A stretch of DNA of 55,491 bases from Bacteroidota bacterium (GCA_007280875.1 QYQJ01000019.1:1-55491), one strand, 5' to 3'. Counted from the first letter of the stretch, positions 334-53,440 are shown. Program-made: numbers and translations. The notes: a model not told the origin generated them from the letters alone.

Positions 334-337
334 TCTT

Positions 338-430
338 CAGTCGGCAGTACTCAGTTGGCAGTAGGCAATCCTTACCATAACTATTTCACCATTTCGCCAT
401 TTCGCCATTTCGCTACCTCGCTTCCTCACT
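338..430. repeat. Compound tandem array: about 5 x 7-mer (CAGTNGG) followed by 6 x 8-mer (ATTTCGCC/ACCTCGCT)
   Basis: Read directly: cagtcgg cagtact cagttgg cagtagg caatcc ... atttcacc atttcgcc atttcgcc atttcgct acctcgct tcctcact. It lies between the convergent STAS and peptidase genes. Confidence 0.85.
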
Positions 431-3058: not shown

Positions 3059-4807
3059 TTACTTCGTACTTGGAGAGATTCCCAGTTCCTTCAGCTGTTC
3101 TTCACTGATGACAGAGGGGGAATCGATCATCACATCCCTCCCGGCGTTGTTCTTGGGGAAAGCGATGAAGTCGCGGATGGAGTCGCCACCGCCGAATAGC
3201 GTAACCCAACGGTCGAAACCGAACGCGATGCCGCCGTGTGGAGGGGCGCCATACTCGAAGGCGTTCATCAGGAAGCCAAACTGATTCGTAGCCTCCTCTT
3301 CTGTGAACCCGAGCACCCTGAACATTTTCTGCTGCAGCTCTTTGTTGTGGATCCGGATAGAGCCACCGCCGATCTCGGTCCCGTTGATCACCAGGTCGTA
3401 GGCATTGGCCCTCACAGCATCGGGATCGGTTTCAAGCAGTGAAATATCTTCCGGCTTCGGGGAAGTGAAAGGGTGGTGCTTGGCATAGAACCGCCGTGTT
3501 TCCTCATCCCATTCCAGCAAGGGAAAATCAATCACCCAGAGAGGTTTAAATTCCACCGGATTAATCAGATCCAATCGTTTCCCCATTTCCAATCGCAGAT
3601 CGCCCATCGCAGATCGGATTTTATCGGTGTTTCCCGCCAGGATCAGGATCAGATCAGCGGGTTTTGCCCCCATCTCATCCAGAACCAGTTTCAGGTTTTC
3701 TGGAGTATAAAACTTATCTACGGATGATTTGATGGCTCCGTCGGTAGTGTATTTTATATAGGCCAATCCGGTAGCGCCCACCTGGGGCCGTTTCACGAAA
3801 TCAGTCAGTTCTTCAAGTTGCTTTCTGCTATAATCACCACATCCTTCTGCTTTGATTCCCACTACCAGCCCGGCATCGTCAAATATCTTAAATCCTTTAT
3901 TCTGAAGCAAATGGTTGAGTTCATGTAAAGTCATACCGAACCGGATATCCGGCTTGTCAGAGCCATACAACTTCATGGCTTCCTGGTAAGGCATCCGGGG
4001 AAAATCAGAGACTTCAACATTTAACACACTGATAAACAGGTGTTTTGCCAGTCCTTCGAACGTGTTCAATACATCATCCCGGGTCACGAAAGCCATTTCG
4101 CAGTCGATCTGTGTAAATTCGGGCTGACGGTCGGCCCGCAGATCTTCATCGCGGAAACAACGGACAATCTGGTAATACCGGTCATACCCCGCTATCATCA
4201 GGAGTTGCTTGAAGGTTTGCGGTGACTGGGGAAGGGCATAAAACTGGCCTTCATTCATCCGTGAAGGAACCACGAAATCCCGGGCGCCTTCCGGAGTGGA
4301 CTTGATCAGGTAGGGGGTTTCAATTTCAATGAAATCTTTGAAATTGAGATAATTACGTGTTTCAATGGCCATCTGATGACGAAGGAAAAGGTTTTTCCTG
4401 TTTTCATTCCGGCGGAGATCGAGGTAGCGATATTTCATCCGGAGCTCTTCCCCGCCGTCGGTATGGTCTTCAATGGTAAAAGGAGGAATTTTTGACGGGT
4501 TCAATACGATCAACTCTTCAACCAGGATCTCGATTTCTCCGGTGGGGATTTTTGGGTTCTTGTTGAAGCGTTCCGCTACCTTACCCCTGACCCGGATCAC
4601 GAATTCACGACCAAGCTCACGGGCGTCCCTGCATAGATCCGAGTTGATTTCCATGTTGAAAACCAGCTGCGTAATTCCGTACCGGTCGCGCAGGTCGATA
4701 AAGGTCAGCCCGCCCATTTCCCGATTCCGTTGCACCCAGCCGGCTAATGTCACCGCCTGACCGGCATTCCCGATTCGTAATTCCCCGCAGGTGTGTGTTC
4801 GAAACAT
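3059..4807 (-). CDS. aspS: Aspartate--tRNA ligase
   Basis: [12 protein letters not shown]-terminus and class II motifs ([27 protein letters not shown]). The 582-aa length is typical of bacterial AspRS. Confidence 0.97.
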
Positions 4808-4841: not shown

Positions 4842-4924
4842 AAATAGTGAAATAGCGAAATGGTGAAATAGTGAAAATTTCAATATCTCGCTATTTCGCT
4901 ATCTCGCTACCTCGCTATTTCAAT
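4842..4924. repeat. Inverted pair of 8-mer tandem arrays (AAATAGYG x4-5 facing ATYTCGCT x4-5). This is a long imperfect hairpin and a probable terminator of the upstream minus-strand gene.
   Basis: Left arm 4842-4881 is the reverse complement of right arm 4885-4924. The right arm contains the TAG stop and the last 4-5 codons of the 2149-aa ORF. Confidence 0.8.
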
Positions 4925-7900
4925 TCTTCTTCCCTCCGAGTGTGCCGAGAACTCGGGTGCATACATGCACTGGATCGTTGCGATTCCCGTTGAAAAATCC
5001 CCTGCGTTGTTCACCACCAGCGGATATTCGAATACCCAGGTACCTTTGGGCAGGTAGTCGAAGAAGAAATTGGTGGCCAGATCGGTCGTGGACTGATAGT
5101 AGCCCAGGCCGTCCTGGTAGCGGTAACCCGAAAGAGCTGGTGAGCTAGTGAGTTGGTGAGCTGGTGAGATGTTGCCTGAAACTGGTTCCAACCCTGCCGC
5201 CCGCATGTCTTTCAGGTGAATGAATTCCATATTACGGTCCACGGTGACGATGAGGCGAACGATGAGCTTGTCGCCAATCTCCAGATGGTGAGATGGTGAC
5301 ATGGTGACATGGTGAAAAGAGGTATCATTCGTCATTCGTAATTCGTCATTCGTAATTGGAACGAGTACCGGACCTGCCTCTGTATTATTCTCAAGGAAAA
5401 TTTCCTTCCCCAACGTCAGCGGTGTTTCATACTGTGTGACTTTGTCCAGGTTTTCAAAATATTGCCAGTAGAGGCCTCCCCAGGCGATGCCGTCGGAGGA
5501 TTTGGTGATGGAGATATTCCCCATATCAGGGGTAATGTCAATTCCGCTCCAGGAGATCCGGAAATAACCGGTACCGGCCTCCTGTTGTAAATCCTGCTGT
5601 GTGGAAGGATCAACGACCAGATCTCCCAGGCTGATCACCACGTTCGGATCTTCTGCAAGAAGGTCAGTGCCCCGTAGCAACAGGGCATAACATGCATCAA
5701 CAGTGGCTTGTCTGGTTTTCCATAGCTGGGTCTGTTTTTGCTTCAGTAACCAGATTTTCATCTCTTCCATCGATCGGTTGTCCCGGCCTACTTCATTAAA
5801 TGCTTCGATCAACAGGGCCTGGATCTCCACCGGGGCCTGGTACCACTCATACCCGTTTCCAACAGCCCAGTACATGCCCAGTTCGGGAGAATGCAGTGCC
5901 CGCTCTGATAGCGATTTCAGAATTTTCGCCGGGGTTATCAGATCCCCCATCCGGTACAGAGCCAGTGCAATCATCCCTTGCGAGTAAAGATCCTGCTTCA
6001 GCCAGAATTTTTTAGCCTGGGAAGTATAGTATTCCAGGGCTTGGTTGAATTCAACTGACAGATCTTGGATCCGGGATCCGGGATCCGGGATCTGTGTAAA
6101 AAAGGAACGGGTATACAGATATTTCACAATGAATGGCGTCAGGTGGTTGTCTTTCAGTGTTTTGGAATAGTTCTTTTGAAGGCGTTGGTATTCTTTGACC
6201 AGTTCAGTATCAAGGTAGTCCATGGCCTTTCCGGCCATGTCGGTTACTTTACTATCCTCCCCGGGATACCGGACCCCAAGGTGGTTCAGCCGGCCCAGAC
6301 CGGTCAGGATATTCAGGGTCACGATCCTGTTTTCCTGCATTCCTTCAAACCAGGGCCAACCACCTGAAGGATATTGCATTTGTAAAAGTTGAGTCAGGTT
6401 TTCATTGAGGTTATTCTGCAAATTGTTCCTGTCAAAAAACTGCCCGAGTCTCTGTTTTCTTTCAGTCTCATTCCGGGCCTCCATCACCCAGGGGGTCTCT
6501 TGAAGGATGGCGGATTTTAACGCTTCGTTTTTTTCCAGATTCGACAACAGGGCATCGGGGGTCAGTACTTTCCAGCTTTCAACCACCTGCTGGATCCGGG
6601 GATTGAAACCAATGATATGGGAAGCAAGAGCATTCGCGTAAAAGGCACCAAAGACCTGGTCGGTATTTTTGTAACTCTTTTCATCCAGGAAAGGTAACGC
6701 CTGAATCGCATACCATGCAGGATTGGATGCGAATTCCAAGGTAAGTCTGGAGCTGCTGAGGGATTTCAAACCGGCCGAACGGAGCAATTTTTCAAACCGG
6801 AAATCGGTCGTGCCTTTTCCGTTTACCGGTAAGGGTAGCGTTTCAGTTACCAGCATCCGGTTGGTCAATACAGGCAGGATATTTGTTTCCCCATCACTGA
6901 ACTCCCCTGCCCGGGCGGTGACGGTGTATTGAAGCAGGCTGATGAACCTTGAAACGGGAACAGCGAGAGTCCAGGAAACGCTGGTGCTCTGGCCGGCAGG
7001 AATGGTAAAGGTCCTGCTGTTCGCTGTTTGCTGTTCGCTGTTCGCAGATCCGGGATCCGGTATCCGGTATCCGGTATCCAGGATCAACTGATTAAGTGAC
7101 TGCATCGTAATGGCTTCCGCCAGGTTCAGATTTGCCTCTCCGGTGATCTCATGATCGCTCAGGTTCACAATCCGGGTGATGAACATCAGGGTATCTCCTT
7201 GCCGCACAAACCGGGGGACATTGGGAAACACCATCAGATCTTTCTGAGTAACCAGATCTTTCTCAACCAGTCCCCAATCCAACTTGTTGGTATAAGCCAA
7301 ACCAAGTACCTTCCAGGAGGTCAACGCATCGGGAACAGTGAATTTCAGGAACAGGGTTCCGGTGCTGTCAGTCACCAGGGAGGGGTAGAAGAAAGCAGTT
7401 TCGCGGAACGCAGTTCGTACCAGAACCACCGGGATCTGTTTATTCTCAGGGGAGACTACCGGAAATGGTTTCTGTTGTTCGATACTTGCTACATTGTCCA
7501 TCGGGGGTGGATGAGGCTCCTCCATCCCGGCCACTACAGGTTCAGCGTCCATAGAAACTTTGTACTCCAATACTTCAGCCCCCCCTTTTCTGTGGAAATC
7601 CCGGTAAGAACCATATCCCATAGGTTGCATCCCGAACCAGTTCAATTGATCGTACACCCGGTCGTAGAATACGGATGCCATCCACGATCCATACCAGGAT
7701 CCCCCGGTGGTTTTGAAATCGTCGTTACTATTCCAGGTAGACCCGTAATAGTACTGCCTGTAAAGATCAAATGACCAGGAATTGCTCCGGAAGAGATCCA
7801 GCGATCGGTCGTACATGGTGGCCACGAGTGAGGCAATCACACCTCTTCCGCCGGCATTGGTTACACGGATTTTCCACTCCTCCTGCTCTCCGGGTTTCAA

Positions 7901-10900
7901 TTTATTGCGGAAGGTTTCAAAAGCAATATCCAGCTTTTTGTTCGTATAAGGTACCGATACCACCTGGTTGTTCTGGTATACCCGGTTATCCCGGACAAAG
8001 AGAAAATTGACGGCAAAATTCCCCCGGTACGCCTCCAGGATCGGGACATCGATCCGCTTCTGCTGGTTTTTCAGGGCAACCCACTCCCTGGAAACAAGCT
8101 CATCCTTCACCCGGATCTCCTGAATTACCCGGATCTCCTTTTCGCTGGTCCCGATCAGGAACGAGGCAATTTCGCCCGGCTCCCCTGTAGTCTTCAACGG
8201 AACAAACCAGTTGAATGCCAGCACCGGAATCTTCTTACTATCCGGATCAAAAGAGGTGAAATAGAGGATCTTCTCTACTTTCTGACCGAAGGGATCGGTG
8301 GCGGAGAGGGTCAGTTTATAAGATCCTGGATCCTGGATTCCGGATCCCGGATTCCGGATCCCGGATAGAGCGTCCTCACTCTTTTTATCTGGTATCTGGC
8401 ATCTGGCATCTGTCAGGTTGAGTACCGTGTCGCTTGCGGTGTTCATCACGACGTTGAATACCTCTTTTTCAACCGCCCAGGTGGCCGGATCGTCGTCGTT
8501 GGCATAAATATCATGGGGAAAGTCGGCATAAAAGGCTTTCCGCGACAGGATCTGTGTATCGGCCCTGCTCCATAAACGCTCTTTGAAAGCCCGGTCAGGA
8601 CCGTTCAGTTTCTGAAGCGACACCAGAACCTCCGCGGGTGTCTTCTCCCCGTTCAGGTTAGTGGTGGTCAGTTTGAAATTCCCGTCGCTTTTCAGGTTCA
8701 GCTTTTCAGGAAGAGTGATGTCGATCAGCAATGAGGTATAGCCAACCGACAGGCTCTCCCGGGCCGACCGGGTTTCGCCGTTGATATCAGTCACATCGGC
8801 ATAGATCTGATAAACAAAAACGGGCTGGCGTTCGGCCGGAATGGTTCCGTCAGGAATGGCGGTAAAGACAATGGCAAAAGAACCATCTGTACCAGTTGAA
8901 GTGAGCCCGCTGGTAATCTCTGTTTCCGGTGATTCAGGGAACGGGATGTGCCACCAATCCCCACGGAAAGGATAGCGTGCTGTACGTACGACACGGTAAG
9001 TAACGACCCCGGCATCGATTGCATTTCCGGCGTATCCATCTGCTTTTCCGGTAATTGTCACCTGCTGCCCGAGCATATAATTCCCGTGTACCGGATCAAA
9101 TCGCACTTCGAATATAGGACGCTTATACTCCTCCACGTCGATGGAAATGGATCCCGATTCATTAAAGATCCGCATATCCCCAAGCAGCACACCCGAAGGA
9201 GCAGTAAAGGAACCATGAAACGCACCCCAATCATCCGTGATAAAATCCTGCTCGGAAATCTTTTGTCCGTTCACATTGGTAAAAGTTACCTTAGTTTTCT
9301 TATTGGTTTTCAATGAAATGGAATCGCCCGTCCGCTCCAGGACAATCCCTTTGAAGTAAATGGGTTGTCCGGGCCTGTAGATGGCACGGTCGGTGAAAAA
9401 GCGCGTTTGTTCGACGGTCCTTTCCGGTCGGTCAACGCGGGGATACACATAAAGCGGCTGGGAGATGAGCTGCCCCTCATTGTGGTGAATGTGAAGGATC
9501 AGGTTGGTGTAGGAGCCTCTTCCTGCCGATGCCGGAATGGTCAGAAATCCTGTATCGTCCGACCGGTATTCGCCAGTTTTGGAGAATACATACTGTCGGT
9601 TCCGGGAATCATACGTTTTGGAAAATGCCTCTACGAATAAATTCTTCAAAGGGAATCCGCTTGTGCGATCCAGCAGGTAAAGGTCAATGCCACCCTTTTC
9701 GTTGCGCTGGGAAATATAACTTATACAGGTTGACCAGATCTCCTGGTAGGAAAAGGGAACCGTGGAATTCCGGAAGAGGGAATCGGCGGACGCCAGGAGG
9801 AGATAATACCCGGCAGGTATGGCAGGAATGGCGAATTCAAGCCGGTGTGCCTGGTAATCTCCTACATCGGGAAGTGAAACCTGCCAGCTTTTCACCGTTT
9901 CCCTGGAGATCAGGTAGTTGAATGCCTCCTCCCGATTCAATCCGGATAGTGTAGAGGGATAGTTTTCCGGATCAGCTTTGACGATCCGGAACCAGAGGCA
10001 GGGAGAATTTCTATAGGAAAGGGAGCCCAGGGAGAGTTGATCCGGTACAACTGCATATTCGGCCGTGATTGCCAGCGATGGCGTCGTAATCTGCTTGATA
10101 AGAGATTGGCAGTTCTTACCGCCCAGGGATTCAGGGTACTTTCCGGTTGCTTGCAAGCACACGGTTAACGCCGATTTCAAATCCCAATGGTAAGCATCCG
10201 AAACAAGCGGATTATATTTTTCCCCCTCCCCGACCAGGGTTTGTGCCAGGATAAACGAGATATTGGTAGAAGCGGGGGAGAAGGCGTAATTCTTTTCAAA
10301 CTGTCGGAGCGCCTCCAGGTACAGGCTATCTTTTTTAGGTAATGTACTTTCGGAACGGACATATGAAAAACGCTGAAGTTCCCAGTCGATCAATGCGTCC
10401 GGGTTTTTATCGTCCAGATGGAATTCGGCCACAGCCTGGTAGATCCGGATGGCATACCAGGGAAGGGAAAGGGTATCCATTCCCGGGGGGATGAAAGGCC
10501 CGTCTCCCGGCCGGGCATGGATTCCGCCTGGCCGCATGGGAACCATGATGAACACAGGGGTTTGACCGAAAAATATGGGATTATCGATCCGAAATGTCCA
10601 TGCTGGCTGAATGATCGATACATCTTTCTGAGTGAAAAACTGGAGTGCCCGGTAAGCCAGGAAATCAAACAGCGTAGGATGGACTGAAGACAAAGTATCC
10701 GGTTTTCCGTTACCCAGAACCGGACGATCAACGATTGCCCGGTATTGCTCAATCGGAATCTCCTGCAAGCTGTTCTCGTTCGATAACGATTGACGGTAAT
10801 TCAGAATTATTTCAAAGACCAGCCGTTTACTATCCCACGTTTCAGGATCATCAGAGAATGATCCTGACACAGTCGGACGCTCCCGCAACCTGTACTGGTT

Positions 10901-11356
10901 TCGCTGATAATAACTCCAGTAAAGTTCTCCCAGAATAGAATGGAGGATCTGGACAACCGGTTCAGTGGAAGTGGCCAGCTCCTGTTTGACTTCTTCGATT
11001 TCCGGCAATGGGAAATTTTCCTGGAAGGTTGAATTCAAACCGATCCGATAGATAATCGCTTTAACCAGCTGGGGGTCATTTCCTGCCTTTTTTGCATCCT
11101 GGTATAGTTGATCCACAATGGACAGAGCCGAATTGGGCAGTCCCGACTGGACCAGGGAATCCACCTGTAGCCAGAGAGAATCAACAGGAGTGAACCTCTG
11201 AGTATTGACATTGCGAGGAACAGCGTGACTTGGCAATGGTAAACCGGTGAGTTTGTGAGTTTGTGAGTTTGTGAGTGGGTAATGAGTAGTAGGATTTGCC
11301 CGACTGATAACCGACAACTGACAACTGACAATGAAAATCAAAAGAATGCGTTGCAT
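4907..11356 (-). CDS. Alpha-2-macroglobulin family protein (MG-domain protease inhibitor-like, no CxEQ thioester motif seen)
   Basis: Hallmarks are VEEYKRPIFEV (MG2-type xPxFEV) and FRETAFFYPSLVTDSTG...PDALTSWKV (FPETxxW / TTW region). It has an N-terminal signal peptide and is 2149 aa long. None of its cysteines lies in a CxEQ context. Confidence 0.88.
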   Translation of the reverse strand: MQRILLIFIVSCQLSVISRANPTTHYPLTNSQTHKLTGLPLPSHAVPRNVNTQRFTPVDSLWLQVDSLVQSGLPNSALSIVDQLYQDAKKAGNDPQLVKAIIYRIGLNSTFQENFPLPEIEEVKQELATSTEPVVQILHSILGELYWSYYQRNQYRLRERPTVSGSFSDDPETWDSKRLVFEIILNYRQSLSNENSLQEIPIEQYRAIVDRPVLGNGKPDTLSSVHPTLFDFLAYRALQFFTQKDVSIIQPAWTFRIDNPIFFGQTPVFIMVPMRPGGIHARPGDGPFIPPGMDTLSLPWYAIRIYQAVAEFHLDDKNPDALIDWELQRFSYVRSESTLPKKDSLYLEALRQFEKNYAFSPASTNISFILAQTLVGEGEKYNPLVSDAYHWDLKSALTVCLQATGKYPESLGGKNCQSLIKQITTPSLAITAEYAVVPDQLSLGSLSYRNSPCLWFRIVKADPENYPSTLSGLNREEAFNYLISRETVKSWQVSLPDVGDYQAHRLEFAIPAIPAGYYLLLASADSLFRNSTVPFSYQEIWSTCISYISQRNEKGGIDLYLLDRTSGFPLKNLFVEAFSKTYDSRNRQYVFSKTGEYRSDDTGFLTIPASAGRGSYTNLILHIHHNEGQLISQPLYVYPRVDRPERTVEQTRFFTDRAIYRPGQPIYFKGIVLERTGDSISLKTNKKTKVTFTNVNGQKISEQDFITDDWGAFHGSFTAPSGVLLGDMRIFNESGSISIDVEEYKRPIFEVRFDPVHGNYMLGQQVTITGKADGYAGNAIDAGVVTYRVVRTARYPFRGDWWHIPFPESPETEITSGLTSTGTDGSFAIVFTAIPDGTIPAERQPVFVYQIYADVTDINGETRSARESLSVGYTSLLIDITLPEKLNLKSDGNFKLTTTNLNGEKTPAEVLVSLQKLNGPDRAFKERLWSRADTQILSRKAFYADFPHDIYANDDDPATWAVEKEVFNVVMNTASDTVLNLTDARCQIPDKKSEDALSGIRNPGSGIQDPGSYKLTLSATDPFGQKVEKILYFTSFDPDSKKIPVLAFNWFVPLKTTGEPGEIASFLIGTSEKEIRVIQEIRVKDELVSREWVALKNQQKRIDVPILEAYRGNFAVNFLFVRDNRVYQNNQVVSVPYTNKKLDIAFETFRNKLKPGEQEEWKIRVTNAGGRGVIASLVATMYDRSLDLFRSNSWSFDLYRQYYYGSTWNSNDDFKTTGGSWYGSWMASVFYDRVYDQLNWFGMQPMGYGSYRDFHRKGGAEVLEYKVSMDAEPVVAGMEEPHPPPMDNVASIEQQKPFPVVSPENKQIPVVLVRTAFRETAFFYPSLVTDSTGTLFLKFTVPDALTSWKVLGLAYTNKLDWGLVEKDLVTQKDLMVFPNVPRFVRQGDTLMFITRIVNLSDHEITGEANLNLAEAITMQSLNQLILDTGYRIPDPGSANSEQQTANSRTFTIPAGQSTSVSWTLAVPVSRFISLLQYTVTARAGEFSDGETNILPVLTNRMLVTETLPLPVNGKGTTDFRFEKLLRSAGLKSLSSSRLTLEFASNPAWYAIQALPFLDEKSYKNTDQVFGAFYANALASHIIGFNPRIQQVVESWKVLTPDALLSNLEKNEALKSAILQETPWVMEARNETERKQRLGQFFDRNNLQNNLNENLTQLLQMQYPSGGWPWFEGMQENRIVTLNILTGLGRLNHLGVRYPGEDSKVTDMAGKAMDYLDTELVKEYQRLQKNYSKTLKDNHLTPFIVKYLYTRSFFTQIPDPGSRIQDLSVEFNQALEYYTSQAKKFWLKQDLYSQGMIALALYRMGDLITPAKILKSLSERALHSPELGMYWAVGNGYEWYQAPVEIQALLIEAFNEVGRDNRSMEEMKIWLLKQKQTQLWKTRQATVDACYALLLRGTDLLAEDPNVVISLGDLVVDPSTQQDLQQEAGTGYFRISWSGIDITPDMGNISITKSSDGIAWGGLYWQYFENLDKVTQYETPLTLGKEIFLENNTEAGPVLVPITNDELRMTNDTSFHHVTMSPSHHLEIGDKLIVRLIVTVDRNMEFIHLKDMRAAGLEPVSGNISPAHQLTSSPALSGYRYQDGLGYYQSTTDLATNFFFDYLPKGTWVFEYPLVVNNAGDFSTGIATIQCMYAPEFSAHSEGRRIEIAR
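5135..5174. repeat. Intragenic 8-mer tandem array (AGCTGGTG x about 5)
   Basis: agctggtg agctagtg agttggtg agctggtg agatgttg. It is translated in frame as ...SPAHQLTSSPALSG... Confidence 0.85.
5283..5358. repeat. Intragenic compound array: 4 x 8-mer (AGATGGTG/ACATGGTG) plus 5 x 7-mer (CATTCGT/AATTCGT)
   Basis: Read directly. It is translated in frame as ...NDELRMTNDTSFHHVTMSPSHHLE... Confidence 0.85.
6061..6095. repeat. Intragenic 7-mer tandem array (GATCCGG x5)
   Basis: gatcttg gatccgg gatccgg gatccgg gatctgt. It is translated as ...QIPDPGSRIQD... Confidence 0.85.
7031..7095. repeat. Intragenic compound array: 4 x GTTCGCT plus 5 x TCCGGTA
   Basis: gttcgct gtttgct gttcgct gttcgca ga tccggga tccggta x3 tccagga. 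It is translated as ...RIPDPGSANSEQQTANS... Confidence 0.85.
8322..8413. repeat. Intragenic compound array: 6-7 x GATCCYG/GATTCCG, a spacer, then 4 x YATCTGG
   Basis: Read directly. It is translated as ...DARCQIPDKKSEDALSGIRNPGSGIQDPGS... Confidence 0.85.
11246..11335. repeat. Intragenic compound array: about 4-6 x 8-mer (TGTGAGTT), a spacer, then 5 x 7-mer (CAACTGA)
   Basis: Read directly. It encodes part of the signal peptide and the first mature residues (SCQLSVISRANPTTHYPLTNSQTHKLTG). Confidence 0.85.
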
Positions 11357-11383
11357 GATATTTTATTTGGAATGAATTAAATA

Positions 11384-11391
11384 CAAACTTA
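11384..11391 (-). promoter_or_regulatory. Bacteroidota -7 box (TAAGTTTG on the minus strand)
   Basis: Exact TAnnTTTG match about 28 nt upstream of the ATG at 11356. Confidence 0.5.
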
Positions 11392-11542
11392 ACTGAAATT
11401 TAAACCCTAAACAAGGAGACGGGATTTTCGGGATAAAGATGTAAACAGGAAGGAAATTCCATAAGAATTTTAGGACCGCTAAAATCCCTGTGGTAGGGGA
11501 GACCGATCTGGTTTTCCCTGCCGGTTCCGTTGGACCAAACGG

Positions 11543-26344: not shown

Positions 26345-26357
26345 TTAATAACTTTTA

Positions 26358-26383
26358 CTCATAACCTCACAAACTCACCAACT
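26358..26383. repeat. 8-mer tandem array (CTCAYMAM x3) in a 5' UTR
   Basis: ctcataac ctcacaaa ctcaccaa. This is the reverse complement of the GTGAGTTT family seen at 11246. Confidence 0.7.
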
Positions 26384-50189: not shown

Positions 50190-50263
50190 TCCTCCTTAGC
50201 TCAGTTGGTTAGAGCATCTGACTGTTAATCAGAGGGTCGCTGGTTCAAGTCCAGCAGGGGGAG
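50190..50263 (+). tRNA. tRNA-Asn (anticodon GTT)
   Basis: Hand-folded cloverleaf. The acceptor stem is tcctcct/aggggga (one G-U pair) and the D-arm is agctcagttggttagagc. The anticodon stem tctga/tcaga carries loop ctGTTaa, and the T-arm is gctgg-ttcaagt-ccagc. Length is 74 nt with no encoded CCA. Confidence 0.93.
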
Positions 50264-51124: not shown

Positions 51125-53440
51125 TTACGCCACCCTCACCTCATACAAATGCCGCTGGAAGGTGAAAAACAGCGACCGAATATCGGCAACCGCTCCTAAT
51201 TGTTCTGTGGCATCAGACAACGCCTGGTACTTTAATTCCAACAGTTTTGGCAGCTTCTCCTGGTCGAGCTCTTCAACCCCGCTTTCAATGTATTGAGTAA
51301 GCACGAACTCTAGAAACTCCTTCTGTTTGGCATTGAGACCTACGAAAATCTCAGCCTGGGCTGTAGCTACGCGCATCTCCCGGGTCATTGGCTTTGTTGA
51401 ATAGGCAACATATTCCAGCACATCAAAGAGGTCGCTCTTTTCGGCGTCGATCAACTTTTGCAGGACTGAAAGTTCTTCCCGCCCATATCCTGCTGTAGCT
51501 AACTTATCCAACAACGTTCTTCGGGTCACCGGATCTGACCATATCTCACGTAATTCAGCTTCATCCTGAAAGAAATCTGGTAGTGTTCCAAAGAGGTTTT
51601 GCAGGAATTCCTCTGCAGATATAGGATTTCCATCTGCACTCCAATAGGAGGTGGCGATCATGTGTTGGATTTCTCGTTCTTTTCCGTCCCTCAGTTTCAC
51701 TTTAATTTTCTTTCGCTTCTCACCTGGCTCAAATGGTTCAGGTGGCTCTTCAGGCCATGGAGGTTGTGGTTCATCAGGTGGTTCCGGATACGGTTTGGGT
51801 TCCGGTGGCATGGGTTCCCCATCCCATTCCGGATCGGCAAAATGATGATGGGCATCAACAAAATCATATAGAGTGAAGAATTCTTTGCCATCAAATAATC
51901 TTGTTCCCCGACCAATGATCTGCTTGAACTCGATCATTGAATTGACCGGACGCATCAGGATGATGTTGCGGATATTCCTGGCATCAATCCCTGTGGAGAG
52001 CTTCTGGGAGGTGGTTAGAATGGTGGGGATGGTCTTTTCATTGTCCTGAAACTCCCGAAGGTATTGTTCCCCCAGCTCACCATCATTCGCTGTGACACGG
52101 ACGCAATAGTTGGGAGTTGTACTCTGCTTGAATTGATTAACCAGGTCTCTTACAGCTGCCGCATGATCCTGTGTAGCACAAAAAACGATGGACTTTTCTC
52201 GCTGGTCGATCTCCGATAAAAAGATCTTCACCCGTTTGGCTTCCCGTTCCTTGATCTCAATGATCCGGTTGAAATCCGGCTCAATGTAAATCTTCCCTTC
52301 CTCAATCTCCCCTTCAATCACCTGGTCATCCGGAGTATAGATGCAATCATCAATGGTTGTTTTGATCCTTTTGACCTTGAACGGGGTCAGATACCCATCA
52401 TTGATACCCTCTTTCAATGAATAGATATAGACAGGATCCCCAAAATAACGGTATGTGTCTGCATTGTCCTGCCGTTTTGGTGTAGCTGTCAACCCTAGCT
52501 GAACGGCCGGGGAAAAGTACTCCATGATATCCCGCCAGTTGCTTTCATCGTTGGCGCCGCCACGGTGACATTCATCAATGATGATGAAATCAAAGTAATC
52601 CTGCGGATAATCACCAAAATAGGGTATGTTCTCAGGCCCGCTCATGAAGGTCTGGAAGATGGTAAAGAAGATGCTTCCATTGGTGGGTACATGCCTGTGT
52701 TTCCGGATCTCATTCGGTCTTATCCTGACCAGGACATCTTCCTGGAATGCAGAAAAAGCATTGAACGCCTGGTCAGCCAGGATGTTCCTGTCGGCCAGGA
52801 ATAAGACCCTGGGCCGCCTGGACCCATCCCGGTGGAGATTCCATCGTGTGTAGAAGAGCTTCCAGACGATCTGAAACGCAATAAACGTCTTGCCGGTACC
52901 GGTAGCCATGGTAAGCAGGATTCGTTGGTTCTCTCCTGCAATGGATTCCATTACCTTGTTTACGGCAATTTCCTGGTAATATCGTAACTCTTTACTCCCG
53001 CCAACATCTTCAAAGGGTATCTCGTCAAATCTCTTTAGCCAAAGGTTCTGGGATGCAAACGCATTGTTCCAAAGTTCATCAGGTGTGGGAAACCGGTCAA
53101 TTAGGCCTTCAATCCCTGTGTCCATACGAATCTGGTAAATCTCATGACCATTACATGAGAATGTAGTATAAATATGCAGCTTTTCCGCGTAGTTTTTCGC
53201 CTGGGCAACTCCTTCTCCCACTTCCAGTTCATCACTTTTTGCTTCAATCACTGCAAGTTTCCGACCTTGATAGACCAGGATATAGTCTGCAATCAATGGC
53301 TTTGCACGACCGCCACCAGTTTGGATCTTGCCAATTGTGATCTTGTATTCGCGCATCACCTTGGAACCATCCACAACGCCCCATCCGACTTCTTTCAGCT
53401 TTGGGTCAATAAGTTCCGCCCTGGTTTCTGCTTCATTCAT
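51125..53440 (-). CDS. hsdR: Type I restriction enzyme R subunit (EcoEI/type IB-like, short form)
   Basis: N-terminal MNEAETRAELIDPKL and the nuclease core (DYILVY...VIEAKS). SF2 helicase motifs are present (MATGTGKTF, IIDECHRG, TATP, QIIGRGTR). It lies in an operon with hsdS and hsdM. Confidence 0.9.
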   Translation of the reverse strand: MNEAETRAELIDPKLKEVGWGVVDGSKVMREYKITIGKIQTGGGRAKPLIADYILVYQGRKLAVIEAKSDELEVGEGVAQAKNYAEKLHIYTTFSCNGHEIYQIRMDTGIEGLIDRFPTPDELWNNAFASQNLWLKRFDEIPFEDVGGSKELRYYQEIAVNKVMESIAGENQRILLTMATGTGKTFIAFQIVWKLFYTRWNLHRDGSRRPRVLFLADRNILADQAFNAFSAFQEDVLVRIRPNEIRKHRHVPTNGSIFFTIFQTFMSGPENIPYFGDYPQDYFDFIIIDECHRGGANDESNWRDIMEYFSPAVQLGLTATPKRQDNADTYRYFGDPVYIYSLKEGINDGYLTPFKVKRIKTTIDDCIYTPDDQVIEGEIEEGKIYIEPDFNRIIEIKEREAKRVKIFLSEIDQREKSIVFCATQDHAAAVRDLVNQFKQSTTPNYCVRVTANDGELGEQYLREFQDNEKTIPTILTTSQKLSTGIDARNIRNIILMRPVNSMIEFKQIIGRGTRLFDGKEFFTLYDFVDAHHHFADPEWDGEPMPPEPKPYPEPPDEPQPPWPEEPPEPFEPGEKRKKIKVKLRDGKEREIQHMIATSYWSADGNPISAEEFLQNLFGTLPDFFQDEAELREIWSDPVTRRTLLDKLATAGYGREELSVLQKLIDAEKSDLFDVLEYVAYSTKPMTREMRVATAQAEIFVGLNAKQKEFLEFVLTQYIESGVEELDQEKLPKLLELKYQALSDATEQLGAVADIRSLFFTFQRHLYEVRVA

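Follow-up and report, generated by a model that had tools for sequence, protein, structure and literature searches.

In-frame arrays of 7- and 8-nucleotide tandem repeats at predicted loops of a Bacteroidota alpha-2-macroglobulin gene

A 55,491-nucleotide stretch of DNA from a Bacteroidota bacterium (GCA_007280875.1, QYQJ01000019.1:1-55491; hereafter the window) carries an intact alpha-2-macroglobulin (A2M)-family gene of 2149 codons, about 6.4 kb long (4907..11356, minus strand), in which ten arrays of 7- or 8-nucleotide (nt) tandem repeats stand in frame at six sites. The segments that these arrays encode are missing from distant orthologs, and in a structural model they appear to fall in unstructured loops. 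The finding represents an unusually rich new example of a known phenomenon. The function and origin of heptameric repeats of the STRR type have long been unclear, and most copies are intergenic, where constraint is not measurable. Because the arrays described here sit in a known reading frame, third codon positions provide an internal neutral yardstick. With ten arrays, six orthologous positions and at least 17 species, and with some arrays drifting while one family does not, the A2M gene offers a handle on whether STRR-type repeats are selected as DNA or RNA.

Arrays, host protein and insertion sites

Arrays were identified with Tandem Repeats Finder (TRF) and by direct reading. Units are written on the coding strand, here the minus strand, while L- and P-numbers denote loci and A2M proteins, respectively. 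The ten arrays contain 3.7-6.4 copies and span 26-45 nt, and four of the six sites (S1-S6) hold two neighbouring arrays. They are short, mostly imperfect and scattered along the whole open reading frame (ORF), with two of them inside the first 40 codons. At S1, TTGTCAG x4.1 (S1a, 11303-11331) is the reverse orientation of CAACTGA/TAACTGA and encodes IVSCQLSVIS of the N-terminal signal peptide, including its hydrophobic core and the sole candidate lipobox cysteine; ACTCACAA x3.8 (S1b, 11247-11276), whose copies are all identical, encodes LTNSQTHKLT. S2 consists of CAGATGC (equivalent to GATGCCA) x3.7 (S2a, 8387-8412, residues 982-990), which is absent in distant orthologs, and ATCCGGG/ATCCGGA x6.4 (S2b, 8322-8366, residues 997-1012), which is self-complementary with GGATCC cores. 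S3 combines GGATACC/GGATCCC x5.6 (S3a, 7047-7085, residues 1424-1437) with GCGAACA x4.3 (S3b, 7016-7045, residues 1438-1447). A single array of identical copies, GATCCCG x3.7, occupies S4 (6067-6092, residues 1755-1764) in a loop of the helical thioester-like domain. S5 carries AATTACG/AATGACG (AATKACG) x4.7 (S5a, 5325-5357, residues 2000-2011) and TCACCATG x3.9 (S5b, 5285-5315, residues 2014-2024), and S6 is CTCACCAG x4.4 (5134-5168, residues 2063-2075) in a loop of the MG10 domain. A first-pass annotation of the sequence had described six array sites in an open 2149-codon frame, a set of low-complexity peptides and an array contributing to the signal peptide, which is S1a. Each of these was recovered, and nine arrays have the units it gave; the tenth, S2a, had been omitted.

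Arrays of period 7 or 8 with a TRF score of at least 40 number ten in the gene and occur in none of 200 codon shuffles (0/200), and chance is excluded because no comparable array arises there. The window and two further assemblies (JGI 3300022553 and ENA ERZ27245774) differ by 1-3 single-nucleotide polymorphisms (SNPs) and no indel over 21-26 kb. Since the three assemblies agree without indel, being identical at the arrays, and arrays recur at these sites in orthologs of more than 17 species, an assembly artefact, which the first-pass annotation had named as a possible undoing of its proposal, is ruled out as well.

The host protein contains the Pfam domains MG2, A2M_BRD, A2M and bMG10, and its gene is flanked by those for leucyl- and aspartyl-tRNA synthetase (LeuRS and AspRS). 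The best Foldseek matches of its model are Salmonella A2M (4u48, E 7e-39) and E. coli ECAM (5a42), with further matches to A2ML1, CD109, TEP1 and C5. Domains and model together indicate a genuine A2M fold. A C.EQ (CxEQ) thioester motif was sought in the protein and in ten orthologs and found in none, so the protein is taken to be a thioester-less member of the family. Between the A2M_BRD and A2M domains lies a poorly conserved, disordered stretch of about 100 residues (residues 1212-1309, 7430-7723). It occupies the expected place of the bait region and contains no repeat array.

The insertion status of the six segments was assessed with thirteen related loci from GTDB species genomes and 88 database proteins. 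Orthologs of up to 47% identity lack all six, those of 48-51% identity have them in part, and relatives of at least 60% identity have extra residues at all six sites in 17 of 17 cases. The segments are thus lineage-specific, as the earlier proposal of in-frame insertions held, though not in the sense of recent arrivals, as the sites were probably filled before the clade radiated. We infer that the six sites were occupied before the radiation of a clade whose members share 60-72% protein identity.

DNA at these sites in ten clade members again consists of 7- or 8-nt arrays, often with different units. In ten orthologs, TRF detects 76 arrays at the six sites, with a median copy number of 4.0 and a within-array match of 91%. 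At S3b, orthologous units have drifted through GCGAACA, TCGCGAA, CGAAACA, AAATCGA, AAATCCC and CCAAATC. The content of S6 varies further across the clade and may be CTCACCAG, CCTCATCA, ACTCACAA, AACTCGCC or CACCACGG, or a CCCCTCCCC..GGGGNGGGG palindrome. Such G/C palindromes (CCCCTCCCC-N-GGGGNGGGG, with peptides such as PSPSPKGAG) replace or adjoin arrays at S4, S5 and S6 in L001, L003, L009 and L136. The idea that array size is 'quantised' at about 4.4 copies was also considered; a mode at 31-32 nt exists, but it is not relied upon because TRF is blind to arrays of fewer than about three copies.

A direct sequence search of the PDB gave no match and a profile search gave distant MG-domain matches only, for which reason the mapping of the sites rests on an AlphaFold model. 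This model, built from a 50-sequence alignment, covers residues 950-2149 with a mean predicted confidence (pLDDT) of 77 and includes S2-S6, with S1 outside. Segments with pLDDT below 50 coincide with S2 (residues 985-1005), S3 (1429-1442), S4 (1760-1763, between helices), S5 (2004-2022) and S6 (2062-2071). All five modelled sites (5/5) are therefore predicted as coil of low confidence flanked by confident strands or helices, bearing out the suggestion in the first-pass annotation of loop insertions in the A2M fold. S1 sits in the variable N-terminal leader. From the model, the arrays appear to be located in disordered surface loops.

Distribution, reading frame and variation

Across seven syntenic loci with gene tables (19-26 kb each), intergenic DNA and gene edges hold 17 arrays in 5.9 kb (2.9 per kb), A2M holds 40 in 44.4 kb (0.9 per kb), and all other coding sequence holds 4 in 124 kb (0.03 per kb). 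At least two of these last four look like chance matches, two being in the AspRS region, whose sequence reads as that of an ordinary AspRS. More distant relatives (L004, L006-8, L013, L141) have essentially no arrays. Given these densities and the array-free distant relatives, the arrays are a trait of the non-coding DNA of this clade, with the A2M coding sequence as the exception. About 15 credible arrays are dispersed over the window in recurring families, as in the STRR/LSSR class, whose tandem organisation and preference for non-coding DNA are likewise evident (0/200 shuffles; 2.9 versus 0.03 per kb). Unit families of the gene recur outside A2M in L009, L083 and L005.

The intergenic arrays of the window tend to lie at gene ends. 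The 3' end of A2M has a pair of 8-nt arrays (4842..4918, minus strand): the first, ATAGCGAG x4.4, provides the TAG stop codon, and the second, TATTTCAC x4.4, is inverted relative to it. The resulting long hairpin has an RNA folding energy of -34.2 kcal/mol (z -7.5) and stands just before a U-rich stretch, although a simple terminator scan did not call it (loop 9 nt). Arrays follow the stop codon at the same position in L134, L136, L137 and L140, their units differing. A second pair (337..421, minus strand), of GAAATGGC-type 8-mers followed by CCNACTG 7-mers, lies just downstream of an esterase gene; it has no significant fold, and L137 and L140 likewise have arrays at this position. A ACTCACAA-like array (26357..26383, plus strand) precedes the start of an HD-domain gene by about 15 nt. 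The earlier statement that in-gene units belong to intergenic families holds for some of them (ACTCACAA at 26357-26383 and CAGTNGG/CAACTGA-like units at 337-367).

Folding better than shuffles is limited to the GGATCC-type arrays (S2b, z -2.6; S3a; and S4, whose hairpin has z -4.2) and the 3' pair. Hairpin formation as a general property of the arrays was considered and rejected, as S1, S5 and S6 fold no better than shuffles; the A/C-rich arrays have no structure. No Rfam family matches the arrays.

Arrays in frame are also found in two other genes of these genomes. In the same genome, a PHP-domain phosphatase gene about 5 kb beyond window position 1 (L014, 26393-26421) contains AGGGTCA x4.1. 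In the metagenome-assembled genome of L002, a MeaB GTPase gene (L083, 6670-6921) contains ACTCACAA x4.8, CGAGAGA x5 and TTCGTCC x4.7, the latter two directly preceding its P-loop. A protein-database search for further host proteins, made with an array-encoded peptide, returned only 11 tiny ORFs of 50-83 residues. The possibility that ACTCACAA is a special cross-phylum unit was rejected: among the matches listed, its x3 pattern occurs in many phyla, and the reversed octamer AACACTCA, as a control, behaves likewise.

The reading frame acts on which arrays are found in A2M. Five of the ten in-gene units, including those of S1a (TGA), S1b and S5b, would yield stop codons when inverted. In S5a, units alternate between T and G (AATTACG/AATGACG), and hence the one copy that would otherwise read GAA-TGA reads GAA-TTA, avoiding an in-frame TGA. 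The 116 array-encoded residues are 64% P/G/S/T/D/N/Q/H, compared with 43% for the whole protein.

Within species, the arrays vary in content and not in copy number. No change of unit number was found in about 40 alleles from ten 90%-identity ortholog clusters, a comparison of full-length proteins from consensus assemblies that would miss frameshifted or rare variants. Full-length alleles are of equal length within clusters except for three indels (1, 5 and 6 residues), none a unit-number change. The three assemblies of the population of the window show no unit-number change at any array. For the P0013 population, comparison of three samples over 26 kb revealed eight SNPs but no indel, even at intergenic arrays of 5.5 and 8.5 copies, and at least 24 contigs encode an identical P0013 protein. 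Two scans of metagenome contigs for copy-number variants returned no match, the source sequence included. P0003 and P0094, about 99% identical and of one species, have an array peptide and a palindrome peptide, respectively, at S6. Around S5, P0002 and P0092 diverge over a tract of about 60 residues, which resembles an imported allele. Variation within species thus takes the form of whole-cassette replacement and recombination tracts, not of unit number.

Conservation between species was compared among the window, L001-3, L134-137 and L140, with 21-36 species pairs for arrays of the GATRCCR type. Outside the six sites, identity between clade members at fourfold-degenerate positions is down to 27-48%, which amounts to saturation, and for this reason neutral arrays, concerted evolution included, would be expected to drift equally. 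The S1a, S3b, S5b and S6 arrays do so, with 41-51% nucleotide identity across the clade, which is the background level. The GATRCCR arrays S2a, S2b and S3a have mean nucleotide identities of 81%, 71% and 71%, with 80%, 63% and 68% at third codon positions, and vary only at the two purine (R) positions of the unit.

Competing explanations

The account that seems best, and somewhat probable, is that these are tolerated selfish or mutational repeats of the STRR/LSSR type, on which the reading frame acts as a filter and whose content changes through slippage and recombination. Tandem repeats of 7-8 nt populate the intergenic DNA of this environmental Bacteroidales clade, and those in A2M would occupy six disordered surface loops where added residues are harmless. 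Such sites would have been colonised before divergence of the clade defined by at least 60% A2M identity. Turnover would since have taken three forms: homogenisation within arrays by slipped-strand or unequal exchange, replacement by other small repeats (other unit families or CCCC..GGGG palindromes), and exchange among strains and among species by homologous recombination. At the protein level, selection acts as a filter only, admitting total lengths that are a multiple of three, stop-free orientations or variants, and hydrophilic linker peptides.

Several observations weigh against this account. The GATRCCR arrays are too conserved for pure neutrality (71-81% versus 27-48% at fourfold sites), which it leaves unexplained; candidate causes are selection at the level of DNA or RNA, gene conversion or re-seeding that draws on dispersed members of a conserved family, and lateral exchange of cassettes. 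The S5 cassettes of L003 and L134, which are not sisters on the gene tree, are 92% identical over 84 nt between flanks with ordinary synonymous decay, and the distribution of array types as a whole does not follow the tree. The enrichment of arrays in A2M, at least 30-fold over other coding sequence, is accounted for only by an assumed tolerance, and the census behind it describes seven syntenic loci. Slippage as the generator is itself inferred.

In a different explanation, unlikely overall though a real possibility, the arrays, or at any rate those of the GATRCCR/GATCCSG family, have a function as nucleic acids or are actively maintained as such. A protein might recognise them as binding sites or structures, or they might be dispersed copies kept near consensus by dedicated copying or gene conversion; REP elements and their transposases would be the model, and the A2M loops merely places able to host such elements. 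The conservation of S2a, S2b and S3a far above the saturated synonymous baseline, third positions alike, agrees with this, as do the near-identical S5 cassettes in non-sister lineages, the presence of a two-array cassette, [GATRCCR]n+[YRGCATC]n, at both S2 and S5, and the occurrence of the GATRCCR/GATCCSG family outside A2M in L009 and L083. Stable hairpins are formed by the GGATCC-type arrays and the 3' pair, and several species keep arrays at conserved positions right after stop codons. However, a search of the 55-kb window for a transposase, reverse transcriptase or similar gene found none, its gene functions being ordinary chromosomal ones, and no candidate enzyme is thus at hand there. 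S1a, S3b, S5b and S6 drift to background identity, and the A/C-rich arrays are unstructured. Homologous recombination, seen within species, could account for the shared cassettes. A heptamer array is moreover read in three frames, and protein selection together with homogenisation could constrain every position of the unit.

A more specific form of maintenance, which is distinctly unlikely, would make the GATRCCR/GATCCSG arrays a sequence-specific element whose consensus is held by a recognition or copying mechanism past synonymous saturation and which re-occupies the same loops across lineages. If this were true, the A2M loops with their known frame would constitute a natural experiment separating nucleic-acid-level from protein-level selection on STRR-type repeats.

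It is quite improbable that the arrays are contingency loci, at which the frameshift from adding or removing a single unit would turn A2M off or on. With 7 or 8 nt per unit, every change by one unit does alter the frame, and units whose length is not divisible by three, within an ORF or promoter, are typical of such loci. The 91% homogeneity of the arrays implies turnover of units over evolution, some of which possibly passed through out-of-frame intermediates, and two arrays lie in the first 40 codons. The phase variation by copy-number change that the first-pass annotation had proposed is nevertheless unsupported: among the roughly 40 alleles (ten clusters) and the six consensus assemblies (two populations) compared, neither unit number nor tract length was found to differ between strains or within populations. 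The identity of P0013 across its contigs, the shortness of the arrays (3.7-6.4 copies), their imperfection and spread over the ORF, and like arrays in metabolic genes (MeaB and the PHP phosphatase) also argue against switching. Over the sampled time scale, the arrays are not on/off switches. They give odd low-complexity peptides in conserved proteins, may fragment assemblies, and could be misread as phase-variation loci or as pseudogene scars.

Protein-level selection could in principle keep the loops hypervariable, for example against proteases or phages that recognise the A2M surface. The six loops differ among all species and sometimes within one while the scaffold is conserved, and the host family traps proteases. 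This is nonetheless very improbable, as the bait-like disordered region (residues 1212-1309) is without arrays, the best-conserved arrays are conserved in their nucleotides, the opposite of diversifying selection, and the very same array families are present in genes for cytoplasmic enzymes and in intergenic DNA.

The idea that the arrays are chance low-complexity sequence or an assembly artefact is in effect refuted by the shuffles, the three identical independent assemblies and the sites shared by more than 17 species, and nothing was found in its favour. Only the TRF matches in the AspRS gene (3592-3657) look like chance, and these were treated as such and not as inserted arrays. The AspRS peptide there (27 residues) presumably represents an ordinary AspRS motif, as in E. 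coli AspRS.

Known repeat systems and neighbouring features

Comparable in-frame repeats are reportedly found in the Rickettsia palindromic elements (RPE) of Ogata and colleagues (2000), selfish palindromes said to be about 100-150 bp long that stand in frame in conserved genes at surface-exposed positions, where they would be tolerated for that reason. The A2M arrays resemble them in working, not in membership: repeats lie in frame in a conserved gene at surface positions and add peptide segments. They differ in being tandem arrays of 26-45 nt, with palindromic structure confined to the GGATCC-type arrays and the 3' pair, and thus have neither the size nor the palindromic form that defines RPE. 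Small dispersed repeats are also said to include the cyanobacterial STRR repeats, attributed to Mazel and colleagues in 1990, and the very small SDR elements of Nostoc, attributed to Elhai and colleagues in 2008. The comparison with RPE and STRR repeats drawn in the first-pass annotation is therefore apt for how the arrays work, but the definition of RPE does not apply.

According to the work of Mrazek et al. 2007 on long simple-sequence repeats (LSSR), as relayed by PMC4679880, heptamers are the commonest class of long-unit repeats, and coding DNA tends to lack units whose length is not divisible by three. As far as that account goes, STRR/LSSR repeats and the present arrays are alike in being dispersed tandem heptamers with family structure for which slippage is the proposed generator. 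They are unlike in that the arrays here are concentrated in one gene, in frame.

The closest precedent is the TAACTGA heptamer, sets of which, with 2-6 copies, occur in Beggiatoaceae, cyanobacteria and five Bacteroidetes and are mostly intergenic (MacGregor 2015, PMC4679880). Ten sets are inside ORFs, only in the reverse, stop-free orientation, in which translation gives LSVISYQ, and an RNA-polymerase beta-prime-like protein has one in a surface loop (PMC4679880). One of the ten A2M arrays belongs to this family: S1a (TTGTCAG/TTATCAG) is the reverse complement of CTGACAA/CTGATAA, a rotation of CAACTGA/TAACTGA, and its TTGTCAG...GTTATCAG sequence, with the peptide CQLSVIS, has the same orientation. 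Both systems consist of tandem 7-nt units near gene ends, with a minority in ORFs in stop-free orientation. In contrast to TAACTGA repeats, the arrays here comprise at least eight unit families, including 8-mers, with ten arrays in one gene and orthologous positions kept in at least 17 species. TAACTGA repeats are located just upstream of start codons, whereas the present intergenic arrays are mostly just downstream of stops. The arrangement in A2M had been presented, with some overstatement, as possibly undescribed for such genes in Bacteroidota; stop-free heptamer repeats inside ORFs, with one in a surface loop, were already reported for the TAACTGA family (PMC4679880).

Two further systems share some of these properties. 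The simple sequence repeat (SSR) contingency loci of host-adapted pathogens such as Haemophilus and Neisseria (PMC12721329) likewise have units that are not a multiple of three in the ORF of an envelope-associated protein. In contrast to these loci, the A2M arrays showed no tract-length polymorphism, are short and imperfect with many per gene, and are matched by arrays in housekeeping enzymes. REP and REPIN sequences (PMC3116915) are short, dispersed, conserved families that often form hairpin doublets and lie near other repeats. A 34-nt element beside S1b appears to behave in this way; the arrays themselves are tandem and not single palindromes, and no transposase was found in the window.

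One arm of this small dispersed element, ATTGCCAAGTCACGCTGTTCCTCGCAAT (11210..11237, minus strand), adjoins S1b and is translated in frame as LPLPSHAVPRN. The element, whose consensus is GAGATTGCCACGTCGCTnCGCTCCTCGCAATGAC, also stands beside arrays in L002 (900-927) and L083 (6636-6663). A scan for its core found at least 120 stretches (L142-L261) in very many phyla, including Candidate Phyla Radiation (CPR) bacteria and a Thermoplasmata archaeon, and the core occurs on 70 IMG/VR viral contigs as well (L383-L452). An inverted partner lies within 150 nt in 58 of 124 genomic copies, the window having a single arm. Rfam contains no family for the element, and a literature search by sequence and peptide strings returned nothing relevant to it. 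Possibly, the small palindromes and this pan-phylum element belong with the GATRCCR/GATCCSG element considered above.

The neighbourhood of A2M also varies in gene content. A DUF3108 gene (211-296 residues) is located between LeuRS and A2M in the five clade relatives with gene tables and in the more distant L141. In the window, the LeuRS-A2M gap measures 186 nt (11357-11542), and the DUF3108 gene therefore appears to have been lost in this lineage. Elsewhere in the window, G+C content reaches about 54% between 30000 and 46000, where PQQ-like beta-propeller, ferredoxin and NADH-dehydrogenase-like genes are found, compared with 42-52% in the other 2-kb bins. A single tRNA is encoded in the window (50190-50263). 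A type I restriction R subunit (51125-53440) is followed by two ORFs (region to 55373).

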